The notes under the pieces are model-generated. The model was not told the DNA's origin. It did not search any database and worked only from the letters and a program-made list of their open reading frames with translations. Of a DNA stretch of 64,000 nucleotides, positions 14,058 to 35,469 are shown piece by piece (the first letter of the stretch is position 1; every line of letters begins with the position of its first letter). The position numbers and the translations under genes were made by a program. The DNA comes from Candidatus Coproplasma avicola (lineage in GTDB: Bacteria; Bacillota; Clostridia; Christensenellales; Borkfalkiaceae), in contig DVHK01000093.1 in the NCBI GenBank assembly GCA_018712135.1, positions 8,834 through 72,833 on the forward strand, given 5' to 3'.

Positions 14058-14302
14058 AATTATATTGGTTTATATAAATTTTGTCAACAGAATTGAAGGT
14101 TTACAGAGTGAAAAAAATGTGAAATTATTTACATTATGAAAATAATTAACATTATATTATATATGCGCACAAAACAACAAATGACACACAATATATTGCG
14201 CTTTTACAGTGTATCGCCTGATATAAAAATGACATAAGACTGTATTTGTTTTTTAATAACGGCACGTAGTTATAGCGCAAATCGCAATGTGGCGTTGCCA
14301 AA

Positions 14303-19877: not shown

Positions 19878-22793
19878 TTAAGCAACCGAAACGCTGCCAT
19901 TGTTGTTTGTAATTACAACATCTGTGCCATTAAAATCAAGTGTGAGCGTTTTTACGTTGCCGTTTATTGAAACTTCATATCCGTCGCACATTACACCGTT
20001 GAGAAGATACAGCGGCGCACCTTCTTTTACGACACAGCTGAGAGTGCCTTGACCTATCTGAGTTTCTTCTATGTTAAAATCACTGTAATCCCAATCGGAA
20101 ACGTCATAAACTTCGGTATTGCCCGAACTGCCAACCGTTACATTTACAGAAACACGATCGCCGTCGAGGGTAAGCGTACATCTTACCGTGCCTCCTGCGG
20201 CAAAATCGAAAGCCGTAAAGTAAATCTGCAACTTACCGTCCTCACTGAGCTGAACGGAAGGCGTTCTTATTACACCGTTGATTGTAGTTGTAAGCGAAAC
20301 CTGCTCATTTACGCCTCCAACGGTAGCGGACACGCCGATTGTGATGTCTGTATTGTCATCGACAGCAACAATGTATGTGCCCACAAATGAGGATAAATCA
20401 GTATCTATTTTATTGCTGTATATCGTCTGCGAATCTCCGGATGCAACGGTAACCTGTCCGCCCGTGAAGGTTGCGGTGTGAACAGCATTTGACCGCATAA
20501 ACGTGACGACAACCTCGCCGGGGTTTGAAACAATGCCGGTGACATTTACATCTACGCCGTTATAGTTGACAGATCCATCGGAGCCGAGAATAATATATTC
20601 GCTTCCGTTGCTGTACATGCCTATAACTTCGGCAAGGTCGGGAATGCAGTAAACGAGCGAGTCATACGTTGCATAAAGTCTGTTAACTATTTCAACAATA
20701 TAGTTCTGACCGTCGACCGCATATACAAGCGTGATAGTCTCCGTTCCTCCGCTTATGCCTATGTGAATCGAATAATCATTCCTGTCAACTTTGAGCAAAT
20801 TTGTATTGCCTGTTGACGCGTCATAGGATGAAAGGTTAAGTCCGCCCTCTTCATCTATGCTTATCGAAGACTGAACATATCGACCATCGTAGACAAACGT
20901 TGTACCAAACAACTCTTCGAAAGTATTTTGCGCAACATAGAATCTGCTTTGCTCGTCGGAAGTGGAAATATTGCCCGAGCTGTCGATATCTACAGCCTCC
21001 AATACAGCATCGAGACCTGTTGACGACGGGAACAGAGTATAACGATTGTAATGTGAATCGGGAACCATTTCCCCCTCATTGATCGTTACATAGAGCTCCG
21101 GGGTATCGGTTGTGCGCACGGCACCATAACCCCACGAGAAGTAATAGCTGTCTGCACCGTCGACAGTAACTATTCCCGTTTCAAAATTGAAACGAAGCGT
21201 TTCGGGAGTCAACCCTCCGGTAGTAAAATAGTCGTCGCCTTCGTTTAAAGCCTGTGTCATGGTTTCTATCGCCGTGGGCAGATAATCTTCGGTGAGATAA
21301 GTTGAATACGCAGCGTAGCTGCCGCCGGTACCAACGATAGTCCAATAAATGCCTTGGGTATTGACGAGAGCCAAATTAAACGTAACACTGCCCGAAGTGC
21401 CGAGACCTGAGTCTGTATAGGAATATGCAATCGTCCCGAGGTCTTCAAGATAGGTGAACCTGCTGCCTGTACCCGGGCGGACATCATCGCCGTCTACATC
21501 TTTTGTAGTTATAGTAAGGGCATAGTCTTCGTCAATAGTAAGAATTTCAGAATTGGATGTAAAAGTCTGCACAAACTGGCGCTTGGCATTTTCACGGAAA
21601 TAATAACCGCTGCGCTGCGATCTGTTGGATTCCATATAAAAAACATCTTCGGAACCTTCGACCGCGCGGATTACATAAGTGTAATCGTTTGCTGTGCCTG
21701 GAACGGTAAAGGAATATACAAGCTCTCCGTCATCAATGTAGTGAGAAAGCTGATATGAAGTGCCTTCAAAAATTATATTCTGGTCATCATTGAATACAAT
21801 ATCGCCGCCATTTGCAAGGTTGGTGCCTATTGACCACTCACCTTCTCCGTCTTCATCGCCGGGCAACCACTCAGGATTGTATGCGGCATAAACTTCCGAA
21901 CCTTCAAGCGAAACGAGCTTGGTTTCTTCGTTTGTATATATAAGCGCACGTTCAACCGAGGTATCCTCGTCGCGGAACCAAATGCCCGCGCCGAAAGCGC
22001 CAAATCCCGCAGTTGCCGTCATTTCCTGCCCCTGATAGGTTACGGTACTGTTGACGAGGTCAATGCTCAGCTCTTCTCCTTCTGCATTTAAATACGTCGA
22101 GGAAAATACAGGGGTGTAAGCTTCAACTTCAAGCGTACCCATGGATGTACCGTCATTCATATAGACTGCTTCACCGCTGTAATAGAAGAAATAATTTGTT
22201 TCAGGCACATAGAACGTTATGCCGTAATTTTCGCCCTGGCTTTCAAAAATGGTTACAGCCTGATAAGGTTCAGCGGTAGTTACACCCGAACGGTTGCACA
22301 CTCTCCAACTGAAATAACCTTCGTTATCTACGGTATCGGAAATAACGTAATAATACGAAGTTTCATCGGCGCTATACCATGCGCCGGCATACCTTGATGC
22401 TTCGACAAGGAAAGTGCTGTAAAGCTGATTGTCGGCTACGGAAATCATTTCTAACGCCCCGGCATCGTTAAGGGAAATAGTGTAATCTACTCCGTCTGCG
22501 GTACATGAAATTACGATTTCAGCATCTGCGCCTGTAACATCTGTAATTTCAAAAGACTGAGTTCCCTCCAACGTACCTTCGGCAAGATTTAAAACGCCGG
22601 TTTCGCTTACCCAATCGAAAAGCGCATAAGCGCCGAGTGCCTCGGTAAAATCCGTGTCATTATCGTCCGGCGGATCTACAATGCCGGGATCGTCGGGGTC
22701 AGGCGGATTGTTTACTTCACCGTTCGTGCAAGCACATATTACGCCTGCGCCGAGAGAGAGTACCCCTGCCAAAAGCAGTGCAAATTTTTTCAT
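19878..22793 (-). CDS. Large secreted protein / probable lipoprotein of unknown function (971 aa)
   Basis: Signal peptide MKKFALLLAGVLSLGAGVICAC with a Cys-containing lipobox-like end. Acidic, Thr/Gly/Tyr-rich, beta-rich composition. GGAGGA SD upstream. No catalytic or repeat motif recognised. Confidence 0.7.
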   Translation of the reverse strand: MKKFALLLAGVLSLGAGVICACTNGEVNNPPDPDDPGIVDPPDDNDTDFTEALGAYALFDWVSETGVLNLAEGTLEGTQSFEITDVTGADAEIVISCTADGVDYTISLNDAGALEMISVADNQLYSTFLVEASRYAGAWYSADETSYYYVISDTVDNEGYFSWRVCNRSGVTTAEPYQAVTIFESQGENYGITFYVPETNYFFYYSGEAVYMNDGTSMGTLEVEAYTPVFSSTYLNAEGEELSIDLVNSTVTYQGQEMTATAGFGAFGAGIWFRDEDTSVERALIYTNEETKLVSLEGSEVYAAYNPEWLPGDEDGEGEWSIGTNLANGGDIVFNDDQNIIFEGTSYQLSHYIDDGELVYSFTVPGTANDYTYVIRAVEGSEDVFYMESNRSQRSGYYFRENAKRQFVQTFTSNSEILTIDEDYALTITTKDVDGDDVRPGTGSRFTYLEDLGTIAYSYTDSGLGTSGSVTFNLALVNTQGIYWTIVGTGGSYAAYSTYLTEDYLPTAIETMTQALNEGDDYFTTGGLTPETLRFNFETGIVTVDGADSYYFSWGYGAVRTTDTPELYVTINEGEMVPDSHYNRYTLFPSSTGLDAVLEAVDIDSSGNISTSDEQSRFYVAQNTFEELFGTTFVYDGRYVQSSISIDEEGGLNLSSYDASTGNTNLLKVDRNDYSIHIGISGGTETITLVYAVDGQNYIVEIVNRLYATYDSLVYCIPDLAEVIGMYSNGSEYIILGSDGSVNYNGVDVNVTGIVSNPGEVVVTFMRSNAVHTATFTGGQVTVASGDSQTIYSNKIDTDLSSFVGTYIVAVDDNTDITIGVSATVGGVNEQVSLTTTINGVIRTPSVQLSEDGKLQIYFTAFDFAAGGTVRCTLTLDGDRVSVNVTVGSSGNTEVYDVSDWDYSDFNIEETQIGQGTLSCVVKEGAPLYLLNGVMCDGYEVSINGNVKTLTLDFNGTDVVITNNNGSVSVA

Positions 22794-22957: not shown

Positions 22958-24238
22958 TTATCTGATATTTTTTATCATCATGCGGATTATCTCCTCGTCA
23001 GTCTCGCGCATACCGTTACGGGCGAGATCACCGACGTTGCGTATGGTGTTCTCGACTCCCTTTTCAAGTATGCCGTCGCCGCCGAGAAACTCGCTGCCAC
23101 GCGCATTCATCTCCATAGCGACAAGCCCGGCCTCTACCGCCGATGCAACTTTCGCCGCACAGCTTGATTTAGCGCCGTCGCATATGACGCCCGACTCTAT
23201 CGCCAGCGCATTCACCACAGTATGAGCAATCTGGTCATAGCCACCGCCGCGCAGATAGCACACTCCCGCACCCGCTCCGCAGCCGGCGCTTACCGCCCCG
23301 CAATACGCCGAAAGGCAGCCTATGCCCGCCTTTAAATGTATAGTTACAAGATCGGAAACGACGAGGGCGCGCAAAAGCTTTTCACGCGGGGAGTTGAAAT
23401 GTTTTGCGTAGACGACAACGGGCAAAGACGCCGTCATGCCTTGGTTGCCGCTGCCAGAAACGATAACGACGGGCAGTTCGCATCCGTTCATGCGCGCATC
23501 GGATCCAGCAGCCGCAGTAGCTTTGGCTCGATTGTGTACGTCGTCGCCGAAAGCGTCGATTAAAATTTTTCCGACGCGGGCACCGTAATCGTTTTTCAGC
23601 CCCTCTTCGGCTATCGCGCTGTTGTATTCGATCTGTCTTTCAAGCATGTCCTCAACATCGGCAAGGTCAACGCAATCAGCAAAGTCGACAATATCCTGCA
23701 CTGTAAGGTCGCTTTTAAATTGAGCGAGCGCACCGATACGTTCTTCGGAAGCGTCTTTATCAAACAGGACTTCACCGTTTCTCTCTATGCGCACGACGTT
23801 AGTGTGACTGCCTGTAATGCGCACGAAGGAATATTCATGACCGCTGTAACAGGTTATGCCTATATCAAATACACACCCTGTGTCTGATTGCTCTACGGAA
23901 ATAACGCCGCGTGAGAGATAATTGCTTATGTTTACCCTGTCGTTTTGTGTTATGCCGGCAAGGACTTCAAGTTTAGCCTCCTCGTTGCCTGCAACAATTC
24001 CCGCGGCAACCGCGGCAGGTATTCCGCGCATACCGTCGGTGTTGGGCACGATAACGCTCTTTACATTCTTTAAAATATTTCCGCTGACGGCGACGTCCAC
24101 CTTGTCAGGGATTGCGCCCAATGTTTTGCGGGCGAGAGCTGCGGCATATGCCACGGCGACAGGTTCGGTGCAGCCCATTGCAGGGACGAGTTCGTCCCTT
24201 AAAACGGCAAGACATCCTTGGTAAATCTCTTTTTTCAT
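22958..24238 (-). CDS. UPF0597/YhaM(CyuA)-like L-cysteine desulfidase family protein (serine dehydratase alpha-like)
   Basis: The N-terminal MGCTEPVAVAYAAA motif and overall glycine/alanine-rich pattern match my memory of the UPF0597 family. The ATG at 24238 (MKKEIYQG) is preferred over the TTG at 24274. Confidence 0.7.
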   Translation of the reverse strand: MKKEIYQGCLAVLRDELVPAMGCTEPVAVAYAAALARKTLGAIPDKVDVAVSGNILKNVKSVIVPNTDGMRGIPAAVAAGIVAGNEEAKLEVLAGITQNDRVNISNYLSRGVISVEQSDTGCVFDIGITCYSGHEYSFVRITGSHTNVVRIERNGEVLFDKDASEERIGALAQFKSDLTVQDIVDFADCVDLADVEDMLERQIEYNSAIAEEGLKNDYGARVGKILIDAFGDDVHNRAKATAAAGSDARMNGCELPVVIVSGSGNQGMTASLPVVVYAKHFNSPREKLLRALVVSDLVTIHLKAGIGCLSAYCGAVSAGCGAGAGVCYLRGGGYDQIAHTVVNALAIESGVICDGAKSSCAAKVASAVEAGLVAMEMNARGSEFLGGDGILEKGVENTIRNVGDLARNGMRETDEEIIRMMIKNIR

Positions 24239-24355
24239 ACAATCAGCATACTGCCAAAAGCAGTCAAATGTCAAGCAAAACGGGGGTATAACAATCGCAT
24301 ATGCTAAACATTAATATAATATATGTCACGCACGCGCGCGACATATCATAATAAC

Positions 24356-24384
24356 TTGACAGCGGGCGCATCGTTGCGTATAAT
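24356..24384 (+). promoter_or_regulatory. Perfect consensus sigma-A promoter TTGACA-17-TATAAT
   Basis: -35 TTGACA (24356-24361), 17-nt spacer, -10 TATAAT (24379-24384). GGAGG at 24415-24419 and ATG at 24428. Confidence 0.75.
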
Positions 24385-24427
24385 TTATTAATAAATGCAT
24401 AAATGCACAAATACGGAGGCAAAGATT

Positions 24428-25222
24428 ATGACACCGACAGTCAGACGGCTGCACATGTGGTATGGCATATTTCTTGCAGTATTCACGATTATTGTAGGAA
24501 TATTGTTCATATCACAGGCTGCCGACATTTATTACAGCGGCGTCGGATACTCGCGTGAGCTCGTGGTCGAGCGATGCACGGCGATAGCCGCTCCGTTCTG
24601 GATATGGGTTGCGGCGGTAATCGCAGGCGGAATTATCTGGACGGTCTTCCCAGAAGACGAGAAAAAGTTAAAGCGATTGCCTGACGCGCGCGGCGATGCC
24701 GAAAGATTTTATAAGCTTGCGGCGAAAGAGAGCGACAAGCCAGGCTTCGATGAGGCGGCTCAGGCAGTTGCCCGCGACGCAAAGATAAGAAAGATTTTAT
24801 GGCTGAGCTGCATGGGCGTGTGCCTTGTGTGCGCAGCCGTGGGAATGGCGTTTTTGTTCAACCTCCCCTCCTATCCTTCCGACCCCAACGATGCTATTTT
24901 AGGGCTCGTGCGCAGCGTATTGCCCTGCGTTCTCGTTGCTTTTGCCGCATGTATCGGCGCGACGATTTACGACGGCATAGCCGCAAAAAAGGTTCTTCCC
25001 CACGTAAAAAAGATGCTTGCCCTCGGGGGGCGCTCGCAGGAGCAGGCACAACCGGGAAAGATTGCGCTCGTGCTGCAATCGCCAGTCACCCTTCTTATTG
25101 TAAGAATAGCCATTATTCTAGTTGCTATTGTATTTATTGTTTTAGGCGTATTCAACGGCGGAATGAACGATGTTCTTATTAAGGCAATCAATATCTGTAC
25201 AGAGTGTATCGGAATGGGGTGA
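24428..25222 (+). CDS. Polytopic membrane protein ending in a C-terminal CxxC tail (…KAINICTECIGMG)
   Basis: About five hydrophobic helices. The last 25 aa (GVFNGGMNDVLIKAINICTECIGMG) resemble what I recall as the CD1871A-family CXXC peptides, which sit next to 4Fe-4S membrane proteins. CTEC is at 25196-25207. The ATG at 24428 was chosen because the promoter and SD lie upstream of it and downstream of the ORF-track start. Confidence 0.65.
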   Translation: MTPTVRRLHMWYGIFLAVFTIIVGILFISQAADIYYSGVGYSRELVVERCTAIAAPFWIWVAAVIAGGIIWTVFPEDEKKLKRLPDARGDAERFYKLAAKESDKPGFDEAAQAVARDAKIRKILWLSCMGVCLVCAAVGMAFLFNLPSYPSDPNDAILGLVRSVLPCVLVAFAACIGATIYDGIAAKKVLPHVKKMLALGGRSQEQAQPGKIALVLQSPVTLLIVRIAIILVAIVFIVLGVFNGGMNDVLIKAINICTECIGMG

Positions 25223-25227
25223 GGCTA

Positions 25228-26922
25228 ATGAAAAATTTTTTGATTAAAACAGGCGGATTTTTTAAAAAAATCGGTCTTTGGATAAAAAACCATGCGCCGA
25301 CGAGGCGGAGAATTATTCAACTCTATGCAGCATTACTCACAAATGCAAATATAAAAGGTCTTTTTTCGGGTATGCTCTATGGCGGAGGAACAAAAAATGT
25401 GTGTGTTCCCGGACTAAATTGTTATTCATGCCCAAGCACCGTTGCTTCTTGCCCCCTCGGAGCCTTGCAAAATGCGTTAGCCGGTTCTGGGACAAAAACA
25501 CCGGTTTATATTTTAGGCATACTTGCACTACTCGGAATAATGTTGGGAAGAGTTATATGTGGTTTTCTTTGTCCTACCGGGCTTATACAAGACTTACTCT
25601 ATAAAATAAAGACACCAAAGTTAAAGAAAAATAAAATAACGCGTATACTTTCTTATTTCAAGTATGTGCTTCTTGTCGGCCTTGTAGTTGCAATTCCCCT
25701 TGCGTATATGTTGCAGAATACTCCTGTTCCCGGGTTCTGTAAATATATCTGCCCGTCAGGGACACTTGGTGGAGCGATACTCCTGCTTTTAAACCCTGCA
25801 AACGCTTCGTACTTCGATATGCTGGGAGGGTTATTTACATGGAAGTTTGCTGTTCTGATCGTCATTCTAGTGGCGAGCGTGTTCATTTACCGCCCCTTCT
25901 GCCGCTTTATATGCCCCCTCGGCGCAATTTACGGCTTCTTCAATAAAATTGCGCTACTCGGCGTTAAAGTCGATAAAGATAAATGTACCGACTGCGGACT
26001 GTGCGTTGCACACTGCAAAATGGACATAAAGCACGTAGGCGATCATGAATGCATAAATTGTGGTGAATGTATTAAGGTTTGCCCCACGAAAGCAATTGTT
26101 TGGAAGGGCTCTTCGATATTTGTAAAGCCCAACGATATTGAAAACGATTTAGCTGTAAAAGTTCCCCTGACAAACTTTGTTCAGCCTGTTGCGGCAGGTG
26201 CAGGCGGCGAGGGCGACAGCGTTGTCCTTTCGCAGGCGGCTGAATTACGAACGCCAGTCACGTCTACGGCAGGCGCACCAGCCGCGCCTATGCGCAAAAT
26301 CTACCGCAAAAGACCTTACATAGGGCCCAAAGGACAGCAGATATTAAAAATTGTTGCAGTTGTACTTGCTTCCTTATTGCTTGTTGGAGCAATTGTATAT
26401 TACAATTTCTTTGATTCAAGCGCAAGGGAAAGAATTGTAATAGCCGTCGGCGAAGATTGTCCCGAATTTTCAATACCTATATTAAATGGCGAAGAAGGCG
26501 ACACTTACGAACTTGAAGATTCCCGAGGAAGAATTACAATCTTAAACTTCTGGGGAACATGGTGCGGCCCGTGCGTGCGCGAATTACCGGAATTTGAAGA
26601 GATTGCAAATAACTATGCTGACGACGTAACGGTTATTGCCATTGGAGATTATTACGAGTCACGCGAAACCGTACTGAATTTCATTCCGAGCGAAATAGGT
26701 TCACAAGGCAAAACAGACTGGTCTGATTGGACGCTTACATTTGCTCACGATGTGGAACAACAAGACGGCTCTTCCGTATATGAACTTCTTGGCGGCGTAA
26801 ACGCTTATCCGATGACATTGATTCTCGATGAAAACGGGGTAATATCGTTTATCCGTGAAGGCAGTTTATCATATGAAGAACTTGAAAGTCAGGTACTTAC
26901 TATTTTAAATAATGCTGAATAA
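25228..26922 (+). CDS. Fusion protein: NapH/MauN-like membrane polyferredoxin (4 CxxCP motifs plus 2 [4Fe-4S] motifs) - TM helix - TlpA/ResA-type thioredoxin domain
   Basis: CYSCPSTVASCPLG, CGFLCPTG, CKYICPSG and CRFICPLG lie within TM segments. Ferredoxin motifs are CTDCGLCVAHC (25984-26016) and CINCGECIKVCP. An Ala/Pro-rich linker and a TM helix (ILKIVAVVLASLLLVGAIVYY) follow, then a thioredoxin fold with WGTWCGPCVRELPEF (CGPC at 26563-26574). SD GGGGTGAGG is upstream of the ATG at 25228. Only 5 nt separate it from the upstream gene. Confidence 0.8.
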   Translation: MKNFLIKTGGFFKKIGLWIKNHAPTRRRIIQLYAALLTNANIKGLFSGMLYGGGTKNVCVPGLNCYSCPSTVASCPLGALQNALAGSGTKTPVYILGILALLGIMLGRVICGFLCPTGLIQDLLYKIKTPKLKKNKITRILSYFKYVLLVGLVVAIPLAYMLQNTPVPGFCKYICPSGTLGGAILLLLNPANASYFDMLGGLFTWKFAVLIVILVASVFIYRPFCRFICPLGAIYGFFNKIALLGVKVDKDKCTDCGLCVAHCKMDIKHVGDHECINCGECIKVCPTKAIVWKGSSIFVKPNDIENDLAVKVPLTNFVQPVAAGAGGEGDSVVLSQAAELRTPVTSTAGAPAAPMRKIYRKRPYIGPKGQQILKIVAVVLASLLLVGAIVYYNFFDSSARERIVIAVGEDCPEFSIPILNGEEGDTYELEDSRGRITILNFWGTWCGPCVRELPEFEEIANNYADDVTVIAIGDYYESRETVLNFIPSEIGSQGKTDWSDWTLTFAHDVEQQDGSSVYELLGGVNAYPMTLILDENGVISFIREGSLSYEELESQVLTILNNAE

Positions 26923-27125: not shown

Positions 27126-27518
27126 TTAAGCTGCAACTACCTGAACCGTATAGCTGTATACTCCGAGTTGCGTATCGTACTGCGTATTGTCGAAAGAGTA
27201 TCCTTCAGGAACATTTTCAAGATGAATCTGATAATACTTATTTTCTTCAATGCCGCTTATTACAGCTGTACCGTTCTCGTCTACAAGAACACCTCTGAGA
27301 CAGGTTCCAAGTATACCCGCTTCATAGTCATCATATATGCAGAGCTGTACACCCACACCTTCAACAGGACTTCCGTCTTCGTAGGTAACGGTAACAGAAA
27401 TTGTTCCATCAAAAGCTTCATTAGTATCGCCATTTCCGCAAGCGGCAAGAGCGAATGCAAAAACCGCAAGGCAGGCTGTGAGGCAAAGTAAAATCGCCGC
27501 TTTAATTTTTTTCGCCAT
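27126..27518 (-). CDS. Small lipoprotein with a carboxypeptidase-regulatory-like / Cna-B-like beta-sandwich domain
   Basis: 130 aa. Lipoprotein signal (AFALAAC|GNG). ISVTVTYEDGSPVEGVGVQL...VDENGTAVISG...LENVPEGY resembles the N-terminal domain of the upstream 971-aa protein. AAGGAG SD. Confidence 0.65.
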   Translation of the reverse strand: MAKKIKAAILLCLTACLAVFAFALAACGNGDTNEAFDGTISVTVTYEDGSPVEGVGVQLCIYDDYEAGILGTCLRGVLVDENGTAVISGIEENKYYQIHLENVPEGYSFDNTQYDTQLGVYSYTVQVVAA

Positions 27519-27559: not shown

Positions 27560-27589
27560 CTTTTGCGGCGGATTGCTCCGCCGCAAAAG
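27560..27589 (-). terminator. Intergenic hairpin, possible partial terminator or attenuator
   Basis: 13-bp stem CTTTTGCGGCGGA/TCCGCCGCAAAAG with a 4-nt loop, between the stop at 27613 and the start at 27518. No strong U-tract on the minus strand. Confidence 0.4.
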
Positions 27590-27612: not shown

Positions 27613-30528
27613 TTAATCGAAAGTTTCGATGTAGTAGCAAAGCTGCATCCAGGCGTTATCGGTAAGACGGTCTTCAAGTTCCATGAGAATTTGAAGAATT
27701 TCAACAATGCGGTCATTAGCAACTACAAATCCATACGAATTCGGGTTTGCAAGAAGTTCGGTCATTTCAGCGGTGAAATCTTGTTTCTGTTCATCGGTGA
27801 GAAGATCGTACCTGTTTACGAATTCGCCGCCGTTCTGCTGAATGAACCCTTCCCTCGTGCCGCCTTCGGCAATATACGCGGCAAGCGCCTCATTCCAGCG
27901 GGCTTCAAGATAATCGTAATACTTCTTATAATAACCGTTTTCTGTGAAGTCAAAACCGTAGCCTTCGATAACGGTATCAACGCCGTCAATAGTAACTTCA
28001 AGTTTCTGGTTTTGCAACCAATTCGTAAGGGGCATTGTGCTGAATGTTGTGCCGTTTGCGACATCGAGATACAGAAGACCATAATCGGTGCCGTCGTCGC
28101 CTACAGCATAGTAATTGCCGTCGCTACGAAGCTCAGCTTTTACATACGTATTCAAGAAGATCTCACCGGTTGTTTCGTCATACGAGTATGCATCCGAAGC
28201 AGCGGGTCTGATAATAAAATCTTCGTCGTAGAAGGCTATATTTAAATCAAAGCTTCCTGTAATATTGTTATCGGTAAGAGCACATGCAATATAATACGTT
28301 TCGCCTGCCGTCAACTGATATACGAGAGAGAAGTTTCCGCCCGTTCCGTTTGAATCAGCTTCCGCAATGTATCGGGGATTGCTTGAATCGCCATAGTTTT
28401 CGTCAAACAACCATGCAACTGTACCTACACCGCCTTCACTTACATTGTCGGCGGCAATATTGGATGAAGTAAAGACATAAGCTGACGAAGTTGTAGGCGT
28501 AAATGAGAATACTATGCCGCGCGGCGCCTTGGGGAAAGTTTCGATATTTTCATAAGTTCCCATTCCCACTTCGATCGCCGTATCGATAAGCAGACCTGCA
28601 ATAGGATCGGTTATTTCTTCAGCCGCATTGCCGTACTGACGATAATAACGGCAGATCTCTAACCATTCCTGTTCATTGTCATTCGCATTGGAATTTCCGA
28701 GTGCGGCTACAATTTCAACAAGCAAATCTTTAAGTTCCTGCGTTACCGGCGTAAGAGCAACTCCTCCTGAAGAAAGCGAATTCGCCATAGTCGTTACACG
28801 CGAATAACGCGCATACCATGCATAATCCTCTATGGTGTCGAAATTTTCATATACAGGCTCGTCATCTACGGTACCGAGGTACTCACCGACAAGGACATAC
28901 TGAGGAGAATTTTCATCGATATATCCGCCGGCATAGGAATTTCTTGCCGTAATTGCCTGTGTATACAGTCCCGAACCCCAAAGAGTATCATTTATCATTT
29001 CGGCAAGGAGATAAGGGCCGTCTGCCGTACCAACATGGTAATAACCATCTTCTTCATTATATACGGGAGTGATATAATCTTCATAATATGCATTGTCAGG
29101 ATCGGTATCGTTAAGGTTAGTCGCCGCCTGACGAAGCATATTGAGACCTATGTTATTCTCGTTAAGTTCATTGACATCGGTGACGCGCAGATTTGAAATA
29201 TATGCCGTATCGTCGCCTACGTCACTGCCCGTATCCTTTTGATAGGTAAACGAAAGCGTGTGTTCGGTTCCGTCACCTACAAAAGCATAGCATGTCTCCC
29301 AATCGGTTTCCTGAATACCGGAGAACGAACCCATTATCATATTGTCGACAATGGCATATAAAATATCGCTTGTCTCTGTGCTCGTGTTATAATCAAATGC
29401 CAGAACTTCACCTTCGGCAAGGTTAAACCTTACGGATACAAGCGACCAGCTTCCGGCATAGCCGGAGTTGGAACTATAAATGCTGTTGCCGTCTTCGCTG
29501 ACGAGCCAAGGCCAGTTATATTCGCTTGTGTAGTCCCATTCAAAAGTTATGTCTTTGCCTTCAAGGGAATCGGAAGAAATTGCTGCTGCAATATCTTCAA
29601 TATCCGGGTTTTCTACCGTGGGAGGAGTAAGCTCCCAATCATTGCCTATTTGAGAATTATCATAATCATCTCCGGTGTATCTTTCGAACCAGTTTCTGAA
29701 TGTGTTTGCATCCGTTATAGACCCTGTTTCGATCATGCAGATCACACCATAACGGTCAATTATGAAATTAGTAGGATAAGCCTGTACGTTAAAAGGAATC
29801 GAATATGAGGCCGTATTGCGATCAGATGCGACATCCCATGTCATTTCATACTGTTCTTTAAAGTTAACAACACCTTCTTCTGTATCGCCGGGCAAGTAAT
29901 AATCGTCGATTGAAATAATTTCTACCACATCATCGAAATCGCTGTAAGCCTGACCCATGGGGCCAACTTCATTTATGCAAGGCTGACATGTAGTATAGAA
30001 GAAGTTTATCATTACCATCTCTTTACCTTCGTTAAATGCATCGGCAAGAGTTTTTTCTTCACGAACAATATTTCCTTCTTCATCACGGCTGAGCGCTTCG
30101 TAGGTAAAGTTATAAATAACGTCACCCTCTTCATAAACTGTTCCTGCCGGGGCATCCTCCATAATTATGGAACTTGAAAGAGTAATTACGATAGGCGTTC
30201 CCGTGAGATCGGTTACATATTCGCTCTGCGTAGGTCTGAAACCTGCGGGGAGAGAATCAGAATCAAGCTCCACATTATATTCCGCAGGGTTAACGTCCTC
30301 AAAAACGACCTGACCGTTATCGCCTGTTACGAGAGACCTGACAGTCGTTCCATTCTGAACAAGGCTGACTGCTGCCCTGCTTACGGGATTTTCTGCCGTA
30401 TCCTGGACAGTTACAGTGTAGTCTATGGGGCCTGTCGGCGTATCTGCTCCGTTATCGCCACAGGCCGCGGCAAAAACGAGAGAAACTGCCAGAAGCACAC
30501 CCATAAACACGCTTAGAAGCTTCTTCAT
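27613..30528 (-). CDS. 971-aa lipoprotein: carboxypeptidase-regulatory-like domain + TlpA-like thioredoxin domain (CQPC) + large C-terminal region with a PPC-like beta domain
   Basis: Signal/lipobox LVFAAAC|GDNG. TVTVQDTAENPV...GDNGQVVFEDVNPAEY is a prealbumin-like fold pattern. MVMINFFYTTCQPCINEVGPM has its CQPC at 29977-29988, and AYPTNFIIDRYG supplies the cis-Pro loop region of thioredoxin-like proteins. GGAGGA SD. Confidence 0.7.
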   Translation of the reverse strand: MKKLLSVFMGVLLAVSLVFAAACGDNGADTPTGPIDYTVTVQDTAENPVSRAAVSLVQNGTTVRSLVTGDNGQVVFEDVNPAEYNVELDSDSLPAGFRPTQSEYVTDLTGTPIVITLSSSIIMEDAPAGTVYEEGDVIYNFTYEALSRDEEGNIVREEKTLADAFNEGKEMVMINFFYTTCQPCINEVGPMGQAYSDFDDVVEIISIDDYYLPGDTEEGVVNFKEQYEMTWDVASDRNTASYSIPFNVQAYPTNFIIDRYGVICMIETGSITDANTFRNWFERYTGDDYDNSQIGNDWELTPPTVENPDIEDIAAAISSDSLEGKDITFEWDYTSEYNWPWLVSEDGNSIYSSNSGYAGSWSLVSVRFNLAEGEVLAFDYNTSTETSDILYAIVDNMIMGSFSGIQETDWETCYAFVGDGTEHTLSFTYQKDTGSDVGDDTAYISNLRVTDVNELNENNIGLNMLRQAATNLNDTDPDNAYYEDYITPVYNEEDGYYHVGTADGPYLLAEMINDTLWGSGLYTQAITARNSYAGGYIDENSPQYVLVGEYLGTVDDEPVYENFDTIEDYAWYARYSRVTTMANSLSSGGVALTPVTQELKDLLVEIVAALGNSNANDNEQEWLEICRYYRQYGNAAEEITDPIAGLLIDTAIEVGMGTYENIETFPKAPRGIVFSFTPTTSSAYVFTSSNIAADNVSEGGVGTVAWLFDENYGDSSNPRYIAEADSNGTGGNFSLVYQLTAGETYYIACALTDNNITGSFDLNIAFYDEDFIIRPAASDAYSYDETTGEIFLNTYVKAELRSDGNYYAVGDDGTDYGLLYLDVANGTTFSTMPLTNWLQNQKLEVTIDGVDTVIEGYGFDFTENGYYKKYYDYLEARWNEALAAYIAEGGTREGFIQQNGGEFVNRYDLLTDEQKQDFTAEMTELLANPNSYGFVVANDRIVEILQILMELEDRLTDNAWMQLCYYIETFD

Positions 30529-30998: not shown

Positions 30999-32096
30999 TT
31001 AATCTTGGGGATAGAGATGACATGCAACCATATGCCCGTTGCCGTAGTCCTTGAATTTAGGTGCAACTTCTTTGCAGATGTCCATGCAATGATTGCAACG
31101 GGTATGGAATTTGCAACCCTTGGGCGCATTGATGGGACTGGGAATGTCGCCGCTGAGAATTATGCGGTTGCTGTGCCTGTCCGGGTCGGGAATGGGCACA
31201 GCCGAGAACAACGCCTCCGTGTAGGGATGCATGGGATTATCGAAAATATCCACGGTCGACGCATACTCAACAAGACTGCCGAGGTACATAACTCCAACCT
31301 TATTGGAGATGTGTTCGACAACCGAAAGGTCGTGCGAAATGAATATATAGGTGAGCCCCATCTTCTCCTGCATGTCTTTGAGAAGATTGATAATCTGCGC
31401 CTGAATTGACACGTCGAGCGCAGATACCGGTTCGTCGCAGACGACGAAACGAGGCTGCAATGCAAGCGCTGTTGCAATGCATATACGCTGACGCTGACCG
31501 CCCGAAAACTCGTGAGGATAACGCTCGTAATAGTGGTAAGGCAAACCACAGCTTTTCATCACTTCGAGAACATACTCTTTAAGCTGTGATTTTGGCACGA
31601 GCTTATGCTGTGCCACAGCTTCGCCTATTATATCGCCCACGGGCATACGGGGCGACAGACTTGAATAGGGATCCTGGAATATAATCTGCATCTGGGGGCG
31701 AAGTGCATTCATTTCAGCTGTTTTAAGCTTGTTTATATCTTTTCCGTCGAAATAAATTTCACCACCCGTCGCAGTTTGTAAACGAAGAATTGTTCTTCCG
31801 AGAGTTGTCTTGCCGCAACCGGATTCGCCGACTATACCGAGAGTCGTTCCTTTTTCTATTTTAAACGATAGATCGTCGACCGCTTTTAAATATGAAATGG
31901 TTCTTCCGAAAAAATCCTTTTTTGCGGGAAAGTATTTTTTTAGGTTGCGGACTTCGAGGAGAGCATTGGGATCGAGAGGTTCAGATATCTGAGTTGACAC
32001 CTCTTCTTCTTTGATGTTTTCATCGGACATTTGTGAGGCAATGACGTCTTCCGAAGCCGTGCCGCCGATGTTTTCTTCCATGAGATTATCACTCAT
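30999..32096 (-). CDS. Oligopeptide/dipeptide ABC transporter ATP-binding protein (OppF/DppF-like)
   Basis: Walker A GESGCGKTT, signature FSGGQRQR, Walker B VVCDEPVSALD, and the C-terminal oligopeptide-type extension (HPYTEALFSAVP). The ATG at 32096 sits 8 nt after AAAGGAGG. Acidic N-terminal extension of about 45 aa. Confidence 0.9.
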   Translation of the reverse strand: MSDNLMEENIGGTASEDVIASQMSDENIKEEEVSTQISEPLDPNALLEVRNLKKYFPAKKDFFGRTISYLKAVDDLSFKIEKGTTLGIVGESGCGKTTLGRTILRLQTATGGEIYFDGKDINKLKTAEMNALRPQMQIIFQDPYSSLSPRMPVGDIIGEAVAQHKLVPKSQLKEYVLEVMKSCGLPYHYYERYPHEFSGGQRQRICIATALALQPRFVVCDEPVSALDVSIQAQIINLLKDMQEKMGLTYIFISHDLSVVEHISNKVGVMYLGSLVEYASTVDIFDNPMHPYTEALFSAVPIPDPDRHSNRIILSGDIPSPINAPKGCKFHTRCNHCMDICKEVAPKFKDYGNGHMVACHLYPQD

Positions 32097-33309
32097 CAGC
32101 ATTACCTCCTTTGTTCTCCTGCCCCTCGTAAAGATAGCACGACACGCGGTGCGTAGGCGAAACCTGAATGAAATGAGGATATTCGCCGTTGCACTTTTCT
32201 ATGCATCGGTCACACCTCTCTTTGAAGTAACAATAGTCGGGCATATCTATGGGGTTAGGCACCTGACCGGGAATGTTGTAAAGCCTTTCAACTTTACGCT
32301 TTACAACCGGCTTGCTCTTTTGCAGACCTATCGTGTAGGGATGCAGAGGATTGTGGAAAATTTCTTCGGTCGTGCCCGCCTCGATGACTCTGCCCGCATA
32401 CATGACGACTACATAATCGGCCATTTCGGCGATGACACCGAGATCGTGTGTAATGAGCATGATCGAACCGTCGATCTTATCCTTTATTTCGCGCAGAAGA
32501 TCGAGAATTTGCGCTTGAATGGTAACGTCGAGAGCCGTCGTTGGCTCGTCGGCAATTATAAGGCGGGGATTACATGAAAGTGCGATAGCAATCATTACGC
32601 GCTGACGCATACCGCCCGAAAGCTCGTGCGGGTAGCAACGATATACACGCTCGGGCGCGGCAATGCCTACGAGTTTAAGCATCTCAATGCTGCGCGCCTT
32701 TGCCTCTTCCTTTGTGCATCCCGTGTGAAGCAAAATCATCTCGTCAATCTGATAGCCGATGCGGAAAACCGGGTTGAGGCTTGTCATGGGCTCCTGGAAA
32801 ATCATGGCAATCTGCTTGCCGCGAATTTTCTGCATTTCGCTCATGGGCATTTTTGTTATGTCGTAAGCCTTATCGCCGAGATTGAAGCGGATAGAACCGC
32901 CGACAATCTGACCTTGGGGCGCCTGAACGAGCTGCATGAGCGAAAGGCTTGTTACAGACTTTCCGCAGCCCGACTCGCCGACGACGCCGACAGTAGCGCC
33001 CTTGGGAATAGAGAAGGTTACGCCGTCAACCGCCTTGGAAACGCCTGCGTCGGTAAAGAAATATGTATGAAGGTCGTCAAACTCAACAATGTTATTTTCG
33101 TCCTGCATCTGGCAGGTATAAACGCTTTCGTCGACGTTCTTGACCCTCTTCTTCTTTTCATACTCGCGCATGGCGCGCGCATTGCTCTTTGCAATCTCAC
33201 GCGATTCTTTTGCGGTGAGGTAGTGCGCATTGCCCTTACGCGAAGGCTTTTTTACATTGCTCCCGTCGGAGCTTTCGGATTGAGTTGTATTGCTTTTTTT
33301 GAATAACAT
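32089..33309 (-). CDS. Oligopeptide/dipeptide ABC transporter ATP-binding protein (OppD/DppD-like)
   Basis: Walker A GESGCGKSV, signature LSGGMRQR, Walker B IIADEPTTALD, and a C-terminal HPYTIGL motif with a Cys-rich tail. Basic N-terminal extension of about 75 aa. Confidence 0.9.
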   Translation of the reverse strand: MLFKKSNTTQSESSDGSNVKKPSRKGNAHYLTAKESREIAKSNARAMREYEKKKRVKNVDESVYTCQMQDENNIVEFDDLHTYFFTDAGVSKAVDGVTFSIPKGATVGVVGESGCGKSVTSLSLMQLVQAPQGQIVGGSIRFNLGDKAYDITKMPMSEMQKIRGKQIAMIFQEPMTSLNPVFRIGYQIDEMILLHTGCTKEEAKARSIEMLKLVGIAAPERVYRCYPHELSGGMRQRVMIAIALSCNPRLIIADEPTTALDVTIQAQILDLLREIKDKIDGSIMLITHDLGVIAEMADYVVVMYAGRVIEAGTTEEIFHNPLHPYTIGLQKSKPVVKRKVERLYNIPGQVPNPIDMPDYCYFKERCDRCIEKCNGEYPHFIQVSPTHRVSCYLYEGQENKGGNADE

Positions 33310-33317
33310 TTTTACTC

Positions 33318-34430
33318 TTACCTTTTTGCTTTAGGGTCGAACGCGTCGCGCAGACCGTCACCGATAAAGTTGAAACCGAGGACTGCAAGAACAATGCAGA
33401 AGCCGGAGGGAATCCAAATCTGTGCATAGCTTGCGTTTGCAAGGTTGGAAACGTTTGTGGTTACGTCGTTTATCATACCGCCCCACGATGCACTCGTCAA
33501 AGGCACGCCGAGACCCATATACGAGAGCGATGCTTCGGTCAGTATTACCGAGCCGAGACCGAGGGTCATCGAAACTATAAGCTGAGGTATGACGTTGGGA
33601 ACGAGGTGTTTAAAAATCTTACGGGGAGTAGAAAGTCCCCTCGCCGTGGCGGAAACCATGAATTCCTGCTCGCGCAGGGTCAAAATCTGTCCGCGGACTA
33701 TTCGGGCAACGCCCGTCCAGCCTAGTAGTATCAGAACAGCCATCATAAAATATATCTGGAAGTCTGCATCCACTCCCGCGCCGTTTAAGACCGAACCGAT
33801 AATAAGCATTATCGGCAGCGACGGTATACAACTGAAAATATCGATAAGTCGCATTATGAGCGTATCGACCCATTTGCCGAAATAACCGGCAATTCCGCCG
33901 AACACGACGCCTATTATCGTCTCCAAGATGACGACCATAAGGCTTAAAGTCAGCGAAGTTCTGCCGCCGTACATAATGCGCGTTAAAACGTCGCGCCCGT
34001 ACTGGTCGGTGCCCAGCCAATGTTCAGCCGAAGGAGAAGCCAAGCCGTCAATGCCCATAGGGCTTCTGTCGATCTTCCATACGGAGAAAGACTCTCCCGT
34101 CGTTTCATCTACGACGACAATTTCGCTGACCGTTATGTTCATGCGGTCGGTAACGTTATCGACAGTAGATTCGGTGTAGGGCGAAAAAAGCGGGCCAATC
34201 CAGCAGAACGCAAAGAGGAAAATAATTATAGCCAGACCGATAACCGACAATCTTGAACGGAAAAATCTTTTTAATACCAGCCTTGTGGGACTGAGCGTTT
34301 TTACACTGTCGGCAAGGGACATCTCCTCTTCGGGTTCGGGAGAGGGCTCGGGGGGTAAATTCTCTTCGGCAGCTTCGGCTTCAAACTGATATACTTCGCC
34401 GATTTTGCTTTGATTGTTGATATCTTCCAT
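33318..34430 (-). CDS. ABC transporter permease (OppC/DppC-like)
   Basis: BPD_transp_1 pattern with EAA-like loop (TARGLSTPRKIFKHLVPN). The ATG at 34430 follows AGGAGAAGG. N-terminal acidic extension of about 55 aa (EPSPEPEEE). Confidence 0.85.
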   Translation of the reverse strand: MEDINNQSKIGEVYQFEAEAAEENLPPEPSPEPEEEMSLADSVKTLSPTRLVLKRFFRSRLSVIGLAIIIFLFAFCWIGPLFSPYTESTVDNVTDRMNITVSEIVVVDETTGESFSVWKIDRSPMGIDGLASPSAEHWLGTDQYGRDVLTRIMYGGRTSLTLSLMVVILETIIGVVFGGIAGYFGKWVDTLIMRLIDIFSCIPSLPIMLIIGSVLNGAGVDADFQIYFMMAVLILLGWTGVARIVRGQILTLREQEFMVSATARGLSTPRKIFKHLVPNVIPQLIVSMTLGLGSVILTEASLSYMGLGVPLTSASWGGMINDVTTNVSNLANASYAQIWIPSGFCIVLAVLGFNFIGDGLRDAFDPKAKR

Positions 34431-34440
34431 CAGCCTTCTC

Positions 34441-35448
34441 CTATTTTGTGATTTTGACGCGAGGGTCAACTACTACATACATAATATCCGTGAGCAACAT
34501 GCTTATTACCGTGAGGAATGCAATAAATACATTGTAACCCATGACGAAAGGAATATCGCCTGCGTTCATGGCATCGTAAGCAATTTTACCTATACCGGGT
34601 ATACCGAAGAAATCTTCGAGTATCATAGACCCTCCGAAAAGTCCGGGCAAAATGCCAGCGAGCACGGTCACCATGGGAATCATGGTATTTTTGAACGCAT
34701 GCTTATACACTACCGCATTTTCGGAAAGACCCTTTGCGCGTGCAGTGCGGATATAGTCGGCATTGAGCACTTCGAGCATGTTAGTACGCGTGTAGCGCAT
34801 TACAGAGCCGATGCTGAGAACCACCACGACAAATATCGGCAGAACGAGGTGCCATGCCTGGTCGATGAACAGCTCCCACCACGTCGGGTTGATAAGACCG
34901 CTCGATTGCAGACCGAGAGACGTATCGAACCACCCGAGACCGAATGCAAAAACACGCACTACGATAGCCGAGAAGAAGAACGTGGGGAAAGAGATGCCTA
35001 TCATCGTAAGGACGGTGGTTGCATAGTCGAACGCACCGTACTGTTTGACCGCTGCACGTATGCCGAGAAACACAGCCAGAGGGAAATACAATATCAGGCT
35101 GAACAACGTCAGCGCAAACGAAATCCACATGTGATCGGCTATGACGGAGGTAACCTCATCACCATAGACAAATGATGTGCCAAAGTCAAAAAGTATTGCG
35201 CCGTGCGAACCCGTTTCGGCACTGCCGAACAGCCACTTGAAGTAGCCGACAACGGGGGTATCGCTCAGACCATAGATTTCCATGAGCTGAGCGATCCTCT
35301 CCTCCGTCAGTTCAGAGTTGGGATTTGCGGTAAATGTTCTGGTTACATAGTCGCCGGGCATCATTCTGAGCAGCATGTAAATTATAAAAGATACACAGAA
35401 CAGAATGAGTACGCCGAGCAACAATCTTTTTATTACATATTTAACCAT
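34441..35448 (-). CDS. ABC transporter permease (OppB/DppB-like)
   Basis: 335 aa. Starts MVKYVIKRLLLGVLILF and has the EAA loop YIRTARAKGLSENAVVYKHAFKN. Confidence 0.9.
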   Translation of the reverse strand: MVKYVIKRLLLGVLILFCVSFIIYMLLRMMPGDYVTRTFTANPNSELTEERIAQLMEIYGLSDTPVVGYFKWLFGSAETGSHGAILFDFGTSFVYGDEVTSVIADHMWISFALTLFSLILYFPLAVFLGIRAAVKQYGAFDYATTVLTMIGISFPTFFFSAIVVRVFAFGLGWFDTSLGLQSSGLINPTWWELFIDQAWHLVLPIFVVVVLSIGSVMRYTRTNMLEVLNADYIRTARAKGLSENAVVYKHAFKNTMIPMVTVLAGILPGLFGGSMILEDFFGIPGIGKIAYDAMNAGDIPFVMGYNVFIAFLTVISMLLTDIMYVVVDPRVKITK

Positions 35449-35469
35449 TGTTGCTCCGTTTGTACATTA

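Follow-up and report, generated by a model that had tools for sequence, protein, structure and literature searches.

A two-gene membrane module of gut Clostridia proposed to reduce extracytoplasmic thioredoxin domains through an iron-sulfur route

To our knowledge, all characterised routes for reducing extracytoplasmic thioredoxins use a CcdA/DsbD relay that is fed by cytoplasmic thioredoxin. A disulfide can also be reduced by a [4Fe-4S] cluster, as in ferredoxin:thioredoxin reductase (FTR), where a one-electron Fe-S input leads to two-electron disulfide reduction and on to thioredoxin. Here we describe a two-gene module at positions 24356-26922 of a 64,000-nucleotide (nt) stretch of DNA from Candidatus Coproplasma avicola (the whole stretch is called the window below). 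Gene 1 encodes a membrane protein with a CXXC tail, and gene 2 joins a NapH-like membrane core and a ferredoxin domain to a TlpA-like thioredoxin domain. The two genes probably encode an Fe-S-dependent transmembrane thiol-disulfide reductase that is not a CcdA/DsbD cysteine relay. An Fe-S-based route for delivering reducing power to the cell surface had been proposed in a preliminary description of this DNA, and the comparisons reported below support that proposal.

Two CX3CP motifs have been described for RdhC, NapH and NosR (PMC5928378). NapH-like proteins were proposed to move electrons to a fused extracytosolic redox domain (PMC8238504; PMC5928378), and those fused to extracytosolic domains that bind flavin mononucleotide (FMN) were proposed to carry electrons across the membrane (PMC8238504). 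The module described here can probably be regarded as a modular NapH-like transmembrane electron conduit of this kind, in this case coupled to thiol-disulfide chemistry, for which the databases give generic names only.

Architecture and predicted topology of the module

Gene 1 and gene 2 lie 5 nt apart behind a perfect TTGACA-17-TATAAT promoter, both as the preliminary description had stated. The first part of the module comprises the following elements, with positions counted from the first letter of the window.

24356-24384, forward strand: sigma-70-type promoter TTGACA-17 nt-TATAAT (-35 at 24356-24361, -10 at 24379-24384), a 12 of 12 match
24415-24419, forward strand: GGAGG ribosome-binding site of gene 1, 8 nt before the ATG at 24428
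24428-25222, forward strand: gene 1, an open reading frame (ORF) for a 264-residue membrane protein with five transmembrane (TM) helices, seen as five hydropathy peaks, predicted N-in/C-out
25109-25219, forward strand: CD1871A-type module recognised by NF040920, consisting of the last TM helix and the tail ...DVLIKAINICTECIGMG (residues 228-264)
25196-25207, forward strand: CTEC, the CXXC of the tail (C257, C260), invariant in 64 homologues

The exact promoter string occurs twice in the window, against 0.03 occurrences expected from shuffled sequences; the sole other copy lies at 14059-14087 on the reverse strand. GGTGAGG is found just 5' of the second ATG, at the start of gene 2 (25228-26922).

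The five hydropathy peaks and the C257/C260 pair of gene 1 agree with the earlier claim of a roughly five-TM protein ending in a CxxC tail. The C-terminus reads ...KAINICTECIGMG. Although the protein is without any Pfam match, positions 2-38 of the 38-position NCBIfam model NF040920 (CD1871A family CXXC motif-containing protein) align to residues 228-264 with 39.2 bits against a cut-off of 32. Gene 1 thus carries the domain but is not a typical member of the family, since it has 264 residues and five TM helices where the typical protein is small, with a single TM helix. The gene 1 family comprises 278 homologues, and among the 64 that were aligned, 9 of the 12 invariant residues sit in the tail (K252, A253, I256, C257, E259, C260, I261, G262 and G264). 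Because the invariant residues are concentrated in this way, the tail and the preceding helix appear to be the functional unit, with the remainder of the protein being variable.

Gene 2 is made up of the parts listed here, with predicted local distance difference test (pLDDT) values taken from an AlphaFold2 model.

25228-26922, forward strand: gene 2, a 564-residue fusion of a NapH-like, Cys-rich four-TM core, a ferredoxin domain with two [4Fe-4S] motifs, a linker, a fifth TM helix (TM5) and a TlpA-like thioredoxin domain
25402-25455, forward strand: C59-x5-C65-x2-C68-P-x5-C75-P in the TM1-TM2 loop, predicted extracytoplasmic, all four Cys invariant
25558-25575, forward strand: CX3CP-1 (C111, C115) at the cytoplasmic end of TM2, invariant; Fer4_5 covers residues 96-129
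25738-25755, forward strand: CX3CP-2 (C171, C175) in the TM3-TM4 loop, predicted extracytoplasmic, invariant
25900-25917, forward strand: CX3CP-3 (C225, C229) at the cytoplasmic end of TM4, invariant; the NapH/MauN model aligns to residues 197-291
25984-26085, forward strand: two ferredoxin CxxCxxCxxxC motifs (C253-C263, C275-C285), predicted cytoplasmic, all eight Cys invariant
26125-26325, forward strand: low-complexity linker (Ala/Pro-rich at about residues 318-352), pLDDT 26-40, no secondary structure predicted, variable in length and sequence between homologues
26341-26397, forward strand: TM5 (residues 372-390), Kyte-Doolittle value 2.83 (family mean 2.35)
26440-26919, forward strand: TlpA/ResA-like thioredoxin domain with W-C446-G-P-C449 (residues 445-449; nt 26563-26574), predicted extracytoplasmic

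The Pfam families Fer4_5, Fer4, AhpC-TSA and Redoxin all match gene 2 above their gathering scores, and Fer4_7 and Fer4_9 also match the ferredoxin motifs. Fer4_5 (PF12801) reaches 58.8 bits over two stretches (threshold 22), and the thioredoxin domain scores 52.9 bits with AhpC-TSA (threshold 26) and 45.8 bits with Redoxin (threshold 26.6). Together with the sequence positions, these matches bear out the two ferredoxin motifs, Ala/Pro-rich linker, extra TM helix and WCGPC domain of the preliminary description. Its four CxxCP motifs embedded in TM segments have to be redrawn. The membrane Cys motifs are three CX3CP motifs and one composite, C59-x5-C65-x2-C68-P-x5-C75-P, and they are placed at helix ends or in loops, not inside helices, with two of the four groups facing outward by charge. 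The peptide PGLNCYSC is the most conserved of the gene 2 family. CX3CP-2 is extra to the two such motifs described for NapH, NosR and RdhC (PMC5928378); judging from motif order and the aligned model ranges, only C111/C115 and C225/C229 would correspond to the canonical NapH motifs 1 and 2.

The NapH/MauN architecture assigned to gene 2 in the preliminary description holds as a resemblance, in that four TM helices (TM2-TM4 clear, TM1 weaker), two predicted cytoplasmic CX3CP motifs and two [4Fe-4S] motifs are all present. It does not extend to family membership, as the hidden Markov models for NapH score far below their cut-offs (TIGR02163, 81.2 bits versus 213; PRK09477, 64.9 bits versus 234). 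No napA/napG or mau genes were found in the window or in 80 related loci, and a sequence search of the PDB returned no solved structure for the NapH-like core. Neither gene has a Pfam or NCBIfam match to PF02683, and the PCxxP motif is absent from both.

The thioredoxin part of gene 2 likewise scores below the cut-offs of the individual subfamily models (ResA, 75.9 versus 170; StoA, 40.2 versus 210; TlpA, 40 versus 230; DsbE, 45 versus 123), so that on sequence grounds it belongs with TlpA, ResA and CcmG at the superfamily level only. The CxxC and a cis-Pro loop are both present, P528 and T530 being invariant. In the AlphaFold2 model, pLDDT values for this domain are 66-93 in 10-residue blocks and mostly above 80. 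Foldseek matches to the gene 2 model, which concern the thioredoxin domain only, gave TM-scores of 0.86-0.88 to ResA, and Etrx1/2, CcmG, TlpA and DipZ were also matched.

To predict membrane topology, hydropathy was combined with the positive-inside rule, and values were averaged over 64 homologues of gene 1 and 50 of gene 2. The net charges of the segments of gene 2, and the side to which each is assigned, are given below.

N-terminus: net +8.2, inside
Loop with C59-C75: net +1.9 over 42 residues (about two Lys plus Arg), outside
Loop after C111/C115: net +5.9, inside
Loop with C171/C175: net -0.4, outside
Ferredoxin region: net +5.4, inside
15 residues before TM5: net +3.7, inside (after TM5: -1.3)
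Thioredoxin domain: net -21 over about 170 residues, outside

The charge pattern around TM5 and in the ferredoxin and thioredoxin parts therefore places the ferredoxin domain inside and the thioredoxin domain outside the cell, a prediction that agrees with the arrangement envisaged in the preliminary description. Within the four-TM core, C111/C115 and C225/C229 are predicted to face the cytoplasm, and the six further invariant Cys (C59/C65/C68/C75 and C171/C175) are predicted to lie on the outer face. The topology reported for NapH, with the N-terminus inside, four TM helices and the C-terminus inside, agrees with this prediction. For gene 1, the net charges of the N-terminus (+2.1) and of the two large loops (+5.3 and +4.5) place these segments inside; with the N-terminus inside and five helices, the CXXC tail is predicted to be outside.

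Distribution of the fused and unfused elements

The gene 2 fusion is genuine and not an assembly artefact. A 99%-identical protein of 564 residues is encoded on at least 23 independent contigs, and the local gene order of the window is retained at all six of these places that were compared, which come from separate metagenome samples. More than 100 full-length homologues with 49-76% identity were found, carrying only the database names '4Fe-4S binding protein' or 'redoxin family protein', and such homologues occur in at least 80 species-level metagenome-assembled genomes (MAGs), all of uncultured gut Clostridia. The labels of these carriers include Christensenellaceae, Borkfalkiaceae, Scatosoma, Oscillospiraceae/Faecousia and Lachnospiraceae, among others. 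About 40 of the 150 best representatives of 50%-identity clusters combine the core, two ferredoxin motifs, a TM helix and one or more Redoxin domains. The possibility left open by the preliminary description, that the fusion might be peculiar to one assembly, can thus be set aside.

Conservation of the cysteines, a second point on which the preliminary description had made its reading depend, was assessed in 50 homologues (49-79% identity). No substitution occurs at any of the 10 membrane-core or 8 ferredoxin Cys, and conservation at C446 and C449 is 90% or higher. The dipeptide within the CxxC varies across homologues (CGPC, CTPC, CGGC, CSGC and CAGC). Some homologues carry two to four thioredoxin-like domains in tandem, such as P0101 (875 residues) and P0038 (692 residues), in which a single copy keeps the CxxC and the others read, for example, FWDVENQMS or FWSEQSDES; the copies that lack the motif look degenerate and may bind substrate. 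Three further homologues (P0247, P0249 and P0267) have an extra N-terminal domain of about 140 residues with three to four TM helices. In P0247 and P0249 this extension is not homologous to gene 1 (hhalign probability below 1%), and a BLAST search of gene 1 against all gene 2 homologues gave no natural fusion of the two genes.

Gene order was surveyed at 80 fusion loci, drawn from a scan of one genome per species with matches that span nearly the whole protein. At 71 of these, the gene directly upstream ends in ...DVLxKAxxICTECIGLG. This partner is mostly 250-300 residues long, although some have 140-170 residues and one has 56.

Independent support comes from unfused cores, whose operons also encode a CD1871A peptide and a TlpA-like lipoprotein. 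These stand-alone cores have about 290 residues and the same 10 plus 8 Cys. In a sample of 80 metagenomic loci from one core subfamily, 74 have an upstream ORF of about 47-83 residues (counted from the first start codon) that ends in KAxxxCLECxGIG, and 70 have a TlpA-like lipoprotein gene immediately downstream (about 294 residues, Redoxin/AhpC-TSA, CAAC or CSAC). The gap between the core and the lipoprotein genes is mostly 9-30 nt in the 45 loci for which the spacing was resolved. The trio also has a cultured carrier, Peptoclostridium acidaminophilum DSM 3953 (NZ_CP007453.1), in which the NCBI Prokaryotic Genome Annotation Pipeline (PGAP) names a 'CD1871A family CXXC motif-containing protein' of 45 residues that overlaps a '4Fe-4S binding protein', with a lipoprotein named 'TlpA disulfide reductase family protein' 1.5 kb upstream of the pair. 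The CD1871A tail is strictly paired with this type of polyferredoxin core. These gene neighbourhoods and the PGAP annotation, along with the NF040920 score, substantiate the resemblance to CD1871A peptides that the preliminary description had noted for gene 1.

The stand-alone order of peptide, core and TlpA lipoprotein is collinear with the order of tail, core and thioredoxin domain in the window. The fusion in the window can thus be read as a Rosetta stone for a trio that recurs across genomes, a finding new to this analysis. As the three elements are joined by fusion, by operon and by neighbourhood, this arrangement provides the strongest evidence that the polyferredoxin and the extracytoplasmic thioredoxin act together. 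The thioredoxin domain of gene 2 is 22-27% identical to the operon-encoded lipoproteins, and descent of the fusion from an operon TlpA gene, as argued from collinearity, is plausible.

Stand-alone loci often include two-component genes, mostly on the opposite strand, with an OmpR-type response regulator nearby in 51 of the 80 and a HAMP histidine kinase in 41. Examples are L125:1883-2569 and L109:744-1901. These neighbours suggest that expression of the stand-alone operons is inducible and perhaps under envelope-stress control.

The statement that the window holds no ccdA or dsbD stands: no CcdA/DsbD-like ORF was found there with the PCxxP motif or among ORFs below 330 residues with at least five predicted TM helices. 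A search of the related loci, which covered gene neighbourhoods and not whole genomes, likewise found none, up to a distance of about 8 kb at the 80 fusion loci and 3 kb at the 80 stand-alone loci. The PCxxP screen of all flanking ORFs gave spurious matches only. Of 38 polytopic ORFs (150-420 residues) near fusion loci, 10 were read by eye as CcdA candidates and dismissed; they resemble MntP, DUF554 proteins and ATP-binding cassette (ABC) permeases, labels that reflect this reading of the sequence and not database matches.

Genomic surroundings of the fusion

Gene 1 aside, nothing recurs in the neighbourhood of the fusion except surface lipoproteins, which are encoded on the converging strand. 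The features that flank the module in the window are as follows.

24321-24346, no strand assigned: perfect 7+7 palindrome ATATGTC-N12-GACATAT (ATATGTCACGCACGCGCGCGACATAT), 10 nt upstream of the -35 element, which folds as an 11-pair hairpin
22958-24274, reverse strand: 438-residue SDH_alpha-family protein (PF03313, 2.3e-63), divergent from gene 1
27126-27518, reverse strand: 130-residue lipoprotein (lipobox LAACG), apparently a single immunoglobulin (Ig)-like domain, convergent with gene 2
27613-30528, reverse strand: 971-residue surface lipoprotein with an Ig-like domain, a TlpA-like domain (C181-Q-P-C184) and about 690 residues rich in beta-sandwich
30999-38139, reverse strand: operon of an Opp-type peptide ABC transporter, in the same orientation as the thioredoxin lipoprotein gene and immediately upstream of it
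19878-22793, reverse strand: second 971-residue lipoprotein, no significant Pfam/NCBIfam match, tblastn homologue in 1 of the 80 fusion loci
42447-50345, reverse strand: ORF of 2632 residues

The TlpA-like domain of the 971-residue lipoprotein at 27613-30528 matches AhpC-TSA with 33.7 bits, and its CxxC is invariant in 96 homologues. The AlphaFold2 model has a mean pLDDT of 89, and its best Foldseek match is the C-terminal pair of DipZ, comprising a thioredoxin and a second domain; apart from this pair, thioredoxin domains were the only structures matched. Large TlpA-domain lipoproteins at fusion loci have about 950-1100 residues. At 32 of the 80 fusion loci, the non-thioredoxin part has a homologue no more than 8 kb away, in 29 cases downstream and in 31 on the opposite strand. 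Reciprocal look-ups from the lipoprotein gave one case, a distant homologue in a Lachnospiraceae MAG, where two such lipoproteins converge on a gene 2/gene 1 pair, and another that lacks a module within 10 kb. Pfam, NCBIfam and PDB searches for a catalytic domain in the non-thioredoxin part of this protein and its paralogues gave only Ig-like or weak matches. We regard the 971-residue lipoprotein as a candidate client or partner of the module. The linkage of such giant thioredoxin lipoproteins suggests that abundant gut Clostridia reduce extracellular disulfides through an activity that is still unexplored.

Besides the CxxC, this lipoprotein has two nearly invariant cysteines, C626 (NEWLxxCxYY) and C964 (KLCYYY). 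Paralogous lipoproteins that lack the thioredoxin domain share the NEWLxxCxYY motif and a DGYYHVG motif, and by these motifs the proteins appear to form an undescribed domain family. The 130-residue lipoprotein groups with small lipoproteins in a cluster of linked ORFs from other loci, with tblastn homologues in only 5 of the 80 fusion loci. Between the two lipoprotein genes, a 13-bp GC-rich hairpin with flanking A and T runs (27560-27589) is likely a bidirectional terminator.

Adjacency of the Opp operon, whose substrate-binding protein is unusually large (889 residues), hints that disulfide-linked peptides may be reduced before uptake. The transporter was dropped as a general part of the module, since synteny is limited to close relatives (4-5 loci). 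On the other side of the module, the palindrome at 24321-24346 lies between gene 1 and the divergently transcribed SDH_alpha-family gene, and it looks like a candidate operator for a dimeric regulator. The SDH_alpha family (PF03313) presumably includes L-cysteine desulfidases, and the gene may have some connection with the metabolism of cysteine or cystine; the NCBIfam models gave no match to the 438-residue protein.

Proposed mechanism and comparison with known systems

Under the proposed reductase mechanism, a low-potential cytoplasmic donor, most plausibly reduced ferredoxin, would deliver electrons to the two ferredoxin-type [4Fe-4S] clusters of gene 2. The electrons would then pass to the cytoplasmic CX3CP pair (C111/C115 and C225/C229) and cross the four-TM core to the six outward-loop Cys (C59/C65/C68/C75 and C171/C175), where the CXXC tail of gene 1 (C257/C260) may dock. 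Reducing equivalents would exit as a dithiol to the fused TlpA-like domain (C446/C449), which in turn may reduce surface clients, for example the thioredoxin-domain lipoprotein that is frequently found nearby. The donor and the direction in which electrons flow are both inferred. For the membrane Cys, we lean towards a hand-over from Fe-S to disulfide as in FTR, with thiol-disulfide exchange on the outer face, because we are aware of no pathway that would build Fe-S clusters on the outer side of the membrane in a protein inserted by Sec/YidC. If outward or intramembrane clusters were present, they would imply an unknown assembly route.

A broader and more tentative proposal is that the CD1871A peptide, the 10-Cys polyferredoxin and the TlpA-like thioredoxin together make up a third class of transmembrane thiol-redox system, so far overlooked beside DsbD/CcdA and DsbB/VKOR, that would be widespread in anaerobic Bacillota. 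In such a class, reduced ferredoxin would drive an Fe-S chain across the membrane to a cluster-adjacent disulfide, formed by the outward Cys and the CXXC tail, where FTR-like chemistry at the outer face would power the reduction of surface disulfides.

Several observations weigh against the reductase mechanism, which rests entirely on comparative inference. The AlphaFold2 model of gene 2, built on a 50-sequence alignment, is unreliable in the membrane core (pLDDT 43-71) and has a mean pLDDT of 63. TM1 (residues 29-50) is weakly hydrophobic, and the outside assignment of the C59-C75 loop follows from the positive-inside rule and the topology reported for NapH. The charge bias of the short stand-alone peptides is weak, and the tail-out orientation therefore rests mainly on the five-TM version. 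No conserved gene for a cytoplasmic electron donor is linked to the module, and independence from CcdA/DsbD was examined at the level of gene neighbourhoods. Our literature search found no paper that deals with CD1871A, this core subfamily or the fusion. The Fe content of NosR was reported to account only for the two ferredoxin clusters, and the role of CX3CP is unassigned, for NapH and RdhC as well (PMC5928378).

Electron flow could in principle run in the opposite direction, with the thioredoxin domain acting as a DsbB/VKOR-like oxidase of exported thiols and electrons moving inward through the core and the Fe-S clusters to a cytoplasmic acceptor. This would offer a means of disulfide formation to quinone-poor anaerobes. 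The layout, in which an additional TM helix connects a four-TM redox core to a thioredoxin domain outside the cytoplasm, matches that of bacterial VKOR-thioredoxin fusions, the CxxC dipeptides vary among gene 2 homologues, and C626 and C964 of the linked lipoprotein family could form a structural disulfide. We nevertheless judge an oxidase to be quite improbable. The fold and the WCGPC motif are typical of reductants such as TlpA, ResA and CcmG, the DsbA-like motif CPHC was seen in no homologue, and the carriers inhabit the anoxic gut. Moreover, electron transfer from thiols to ferredoxin-type clusters is thermodynamically uphill on established potentials, while transfer from such clusters (about -400 mV) to thioredoxin-like disulfides (about -250 to -300 mV) is downhill. 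The motif and fold, these potentials and the FTR precedent are the reasons for which we favour the reductive direction. A further alternative is a NapH-type, quinol-linked dehydrogenase, in which the four-TM core would oxidise menaquinol and pass electrons to the thioredoxin domain or another acceptor. On established potentials, reduction of a thioredoxin-type disulfide by menaquinol (about -75 mV) would require an input of energy. The weak homology to NapH/MauN (81 bits with TIGR02163, 65 bits with PRK09477) speaks for such an enzyme, as does the proposal that the membrane part of NapH is a quinol-oxidising domain (PMC5928378). However, the families require 213 and 234 bits, far above those scores, the surroundings contain no nap, nos or quinone-related genes, and the invariant cytoplasmic di-cluster domain argues for electron entry from the cytoplasm, all of which makes this a very doubtful alternative.

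The reductase reading also has to be set against a conventional supply of electrons, in which a CcdA or DsbD encoded elsewhere in the genome reduces the TlpA domain. That domain would then service the core, keeping the outward Cys and the CD1871A tail reduced for a cofactor or metal, and the core would have some other extracytoplasmic electron-transfer task. Consistent with this, TlpA-type proteins act as maturation factors, for example for ScoI, and the TlpA-ScoI mixed-disulfide complex (4txo) is among the Foldseek matches; NapH-like cores are used modularly with various partners (PMC8238504); and the search for ccdA was one of gene neighbourhoods. Yet no CcdA-like gene lies near any of the 160 loci, although TlpA/ResA genes commonly adjoin ccdA. 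No other extracytoplasmic redox partner is conserved nearby, the exceptions being the TlpA-like proteins and the two-component pair of the stand-alone loci, and 70 of 80 stand-alone operons have no downstream partner other than the TlpA lipoprotein. We therefore consider a conventional supply unlikely. The two-component genes bring up the further idea that the module is a redox sensor or regulator of envelope thiol state and not a catalytic conduit, as NosR and NirI were first thought to be regulators. Divergent OmpR-type response regulators (51 of 80) and histidine kinases (41 of 80) at stand-alone loci, together with the palindrome beside the window promoter, fit such a role. On the other hand, the two-component system already provides signalling, neither gene 1 nor gene 2 has a DNA-binding or signalling domain, and 18 invariant Cys with a full di-cluster domain exceed the needs of a sensor. 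Of the readings considered here, this one has the least to recommend it.

If the proposed reductase mechanism is correct, surface thiol chemistry would be tied directly to the low-potential electron pool of fermentative anaerobes. Two orphan families would also gain a function, namely the CD1871A peptides and the 4Fe-4S binding membrane proteins with 'PGLNCYSCP', for the latter of which a genome scan gave at least 597 matching stretches. The mechanism could in addition help to explain what the CX3CP motifs common to NapH, NosR and RdhC do. As the fusion carries input and output on a single polypeptide, it lends itself to a direct test of the hypothesis.

Among described proteins, NapH, NosR, NirI and PceC/RdhC share with gene 2 a Fer4_5 module with CX3CP and, except for RdhC, two C-terminal [4Fe-4S] motifs. 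Gene 2 differs from NapH-like proteins in its six additional invariant outward-loop Cys and in its obligatory pairing with a CD1871A-type partner, with no ApbE or respiratory reductase genes nearby. The models for NosR, like those for NapH, score far short of their cut-offs. It also differs from the NapH-like FMN fusions, which have an N-terminal flavinylated FMN-binding domain where gene 2 has a C-terminal thioredoxin domain behind an extra TM helix. The small CD1871A proteins, for which a literature search found no published function, correspond to the last 37 residues of gene 1 and occupy the same position upstream of a 10-Cys polyferredoxin; gene 1 adds four TM helices and two charged cytoplasmic loops.

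The likeness to FTR and to heterodisulfide-reductase-type enzymes is mechanistic and limited to the proposed chemistry. There is no sequence kinship with FTR, a soluble enzyme, whereas the module would work across the membrane. The signature of the FTR catalytic subunit, CPC-x16-CPC-x8-CHC, is absent from the Cys list of the module. VKOR-thioredoxin fusions resemble gene 2 in having a four-TM core with Cys in loops or at helix ends, an extra TM helix and an extracytoplasmic thioredoxin-like domain, but VKOR is a quinone-dependent oxidase of unrelated sequence that has no Fe-S domain. Etrx1 and Etrx2 of Streptococcus pneumoniae, surface TlpA-like thioredoxins of a Gram-positive organism to which electrons are likewise passed through the membrane, are among the top structural and sequence matches. 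They are supplied by CcdA and act on MsrAB2, whereas no ccdA or msr gene is linked to the module.

The proposed task is that of DsbD, CcdA, DipZ and ScsB, namely to supply a TlpA/ResA-like thioredoxin beyond the membrane with reducing equivalents of cytoplasmic origin. DipZ and DsbD likewise combine a membrane module covalently with an outward thioredoxin-like domain, and the C-terminal domains of DipZ are a structural match to the thioredoxin domains of both gene 2 and the 971-residue lipoprotein. The module itself is unrelated to these proteins, having instead a NapH-like four-TM core with 10 Cys, a domain with two [4Fe-4S] motifs and a separate CXXC-tailed partner, and its input would be a one-electron Fe-S donor in place of the cytoplasmic thioredoxin that serves DsbD and CcdA.

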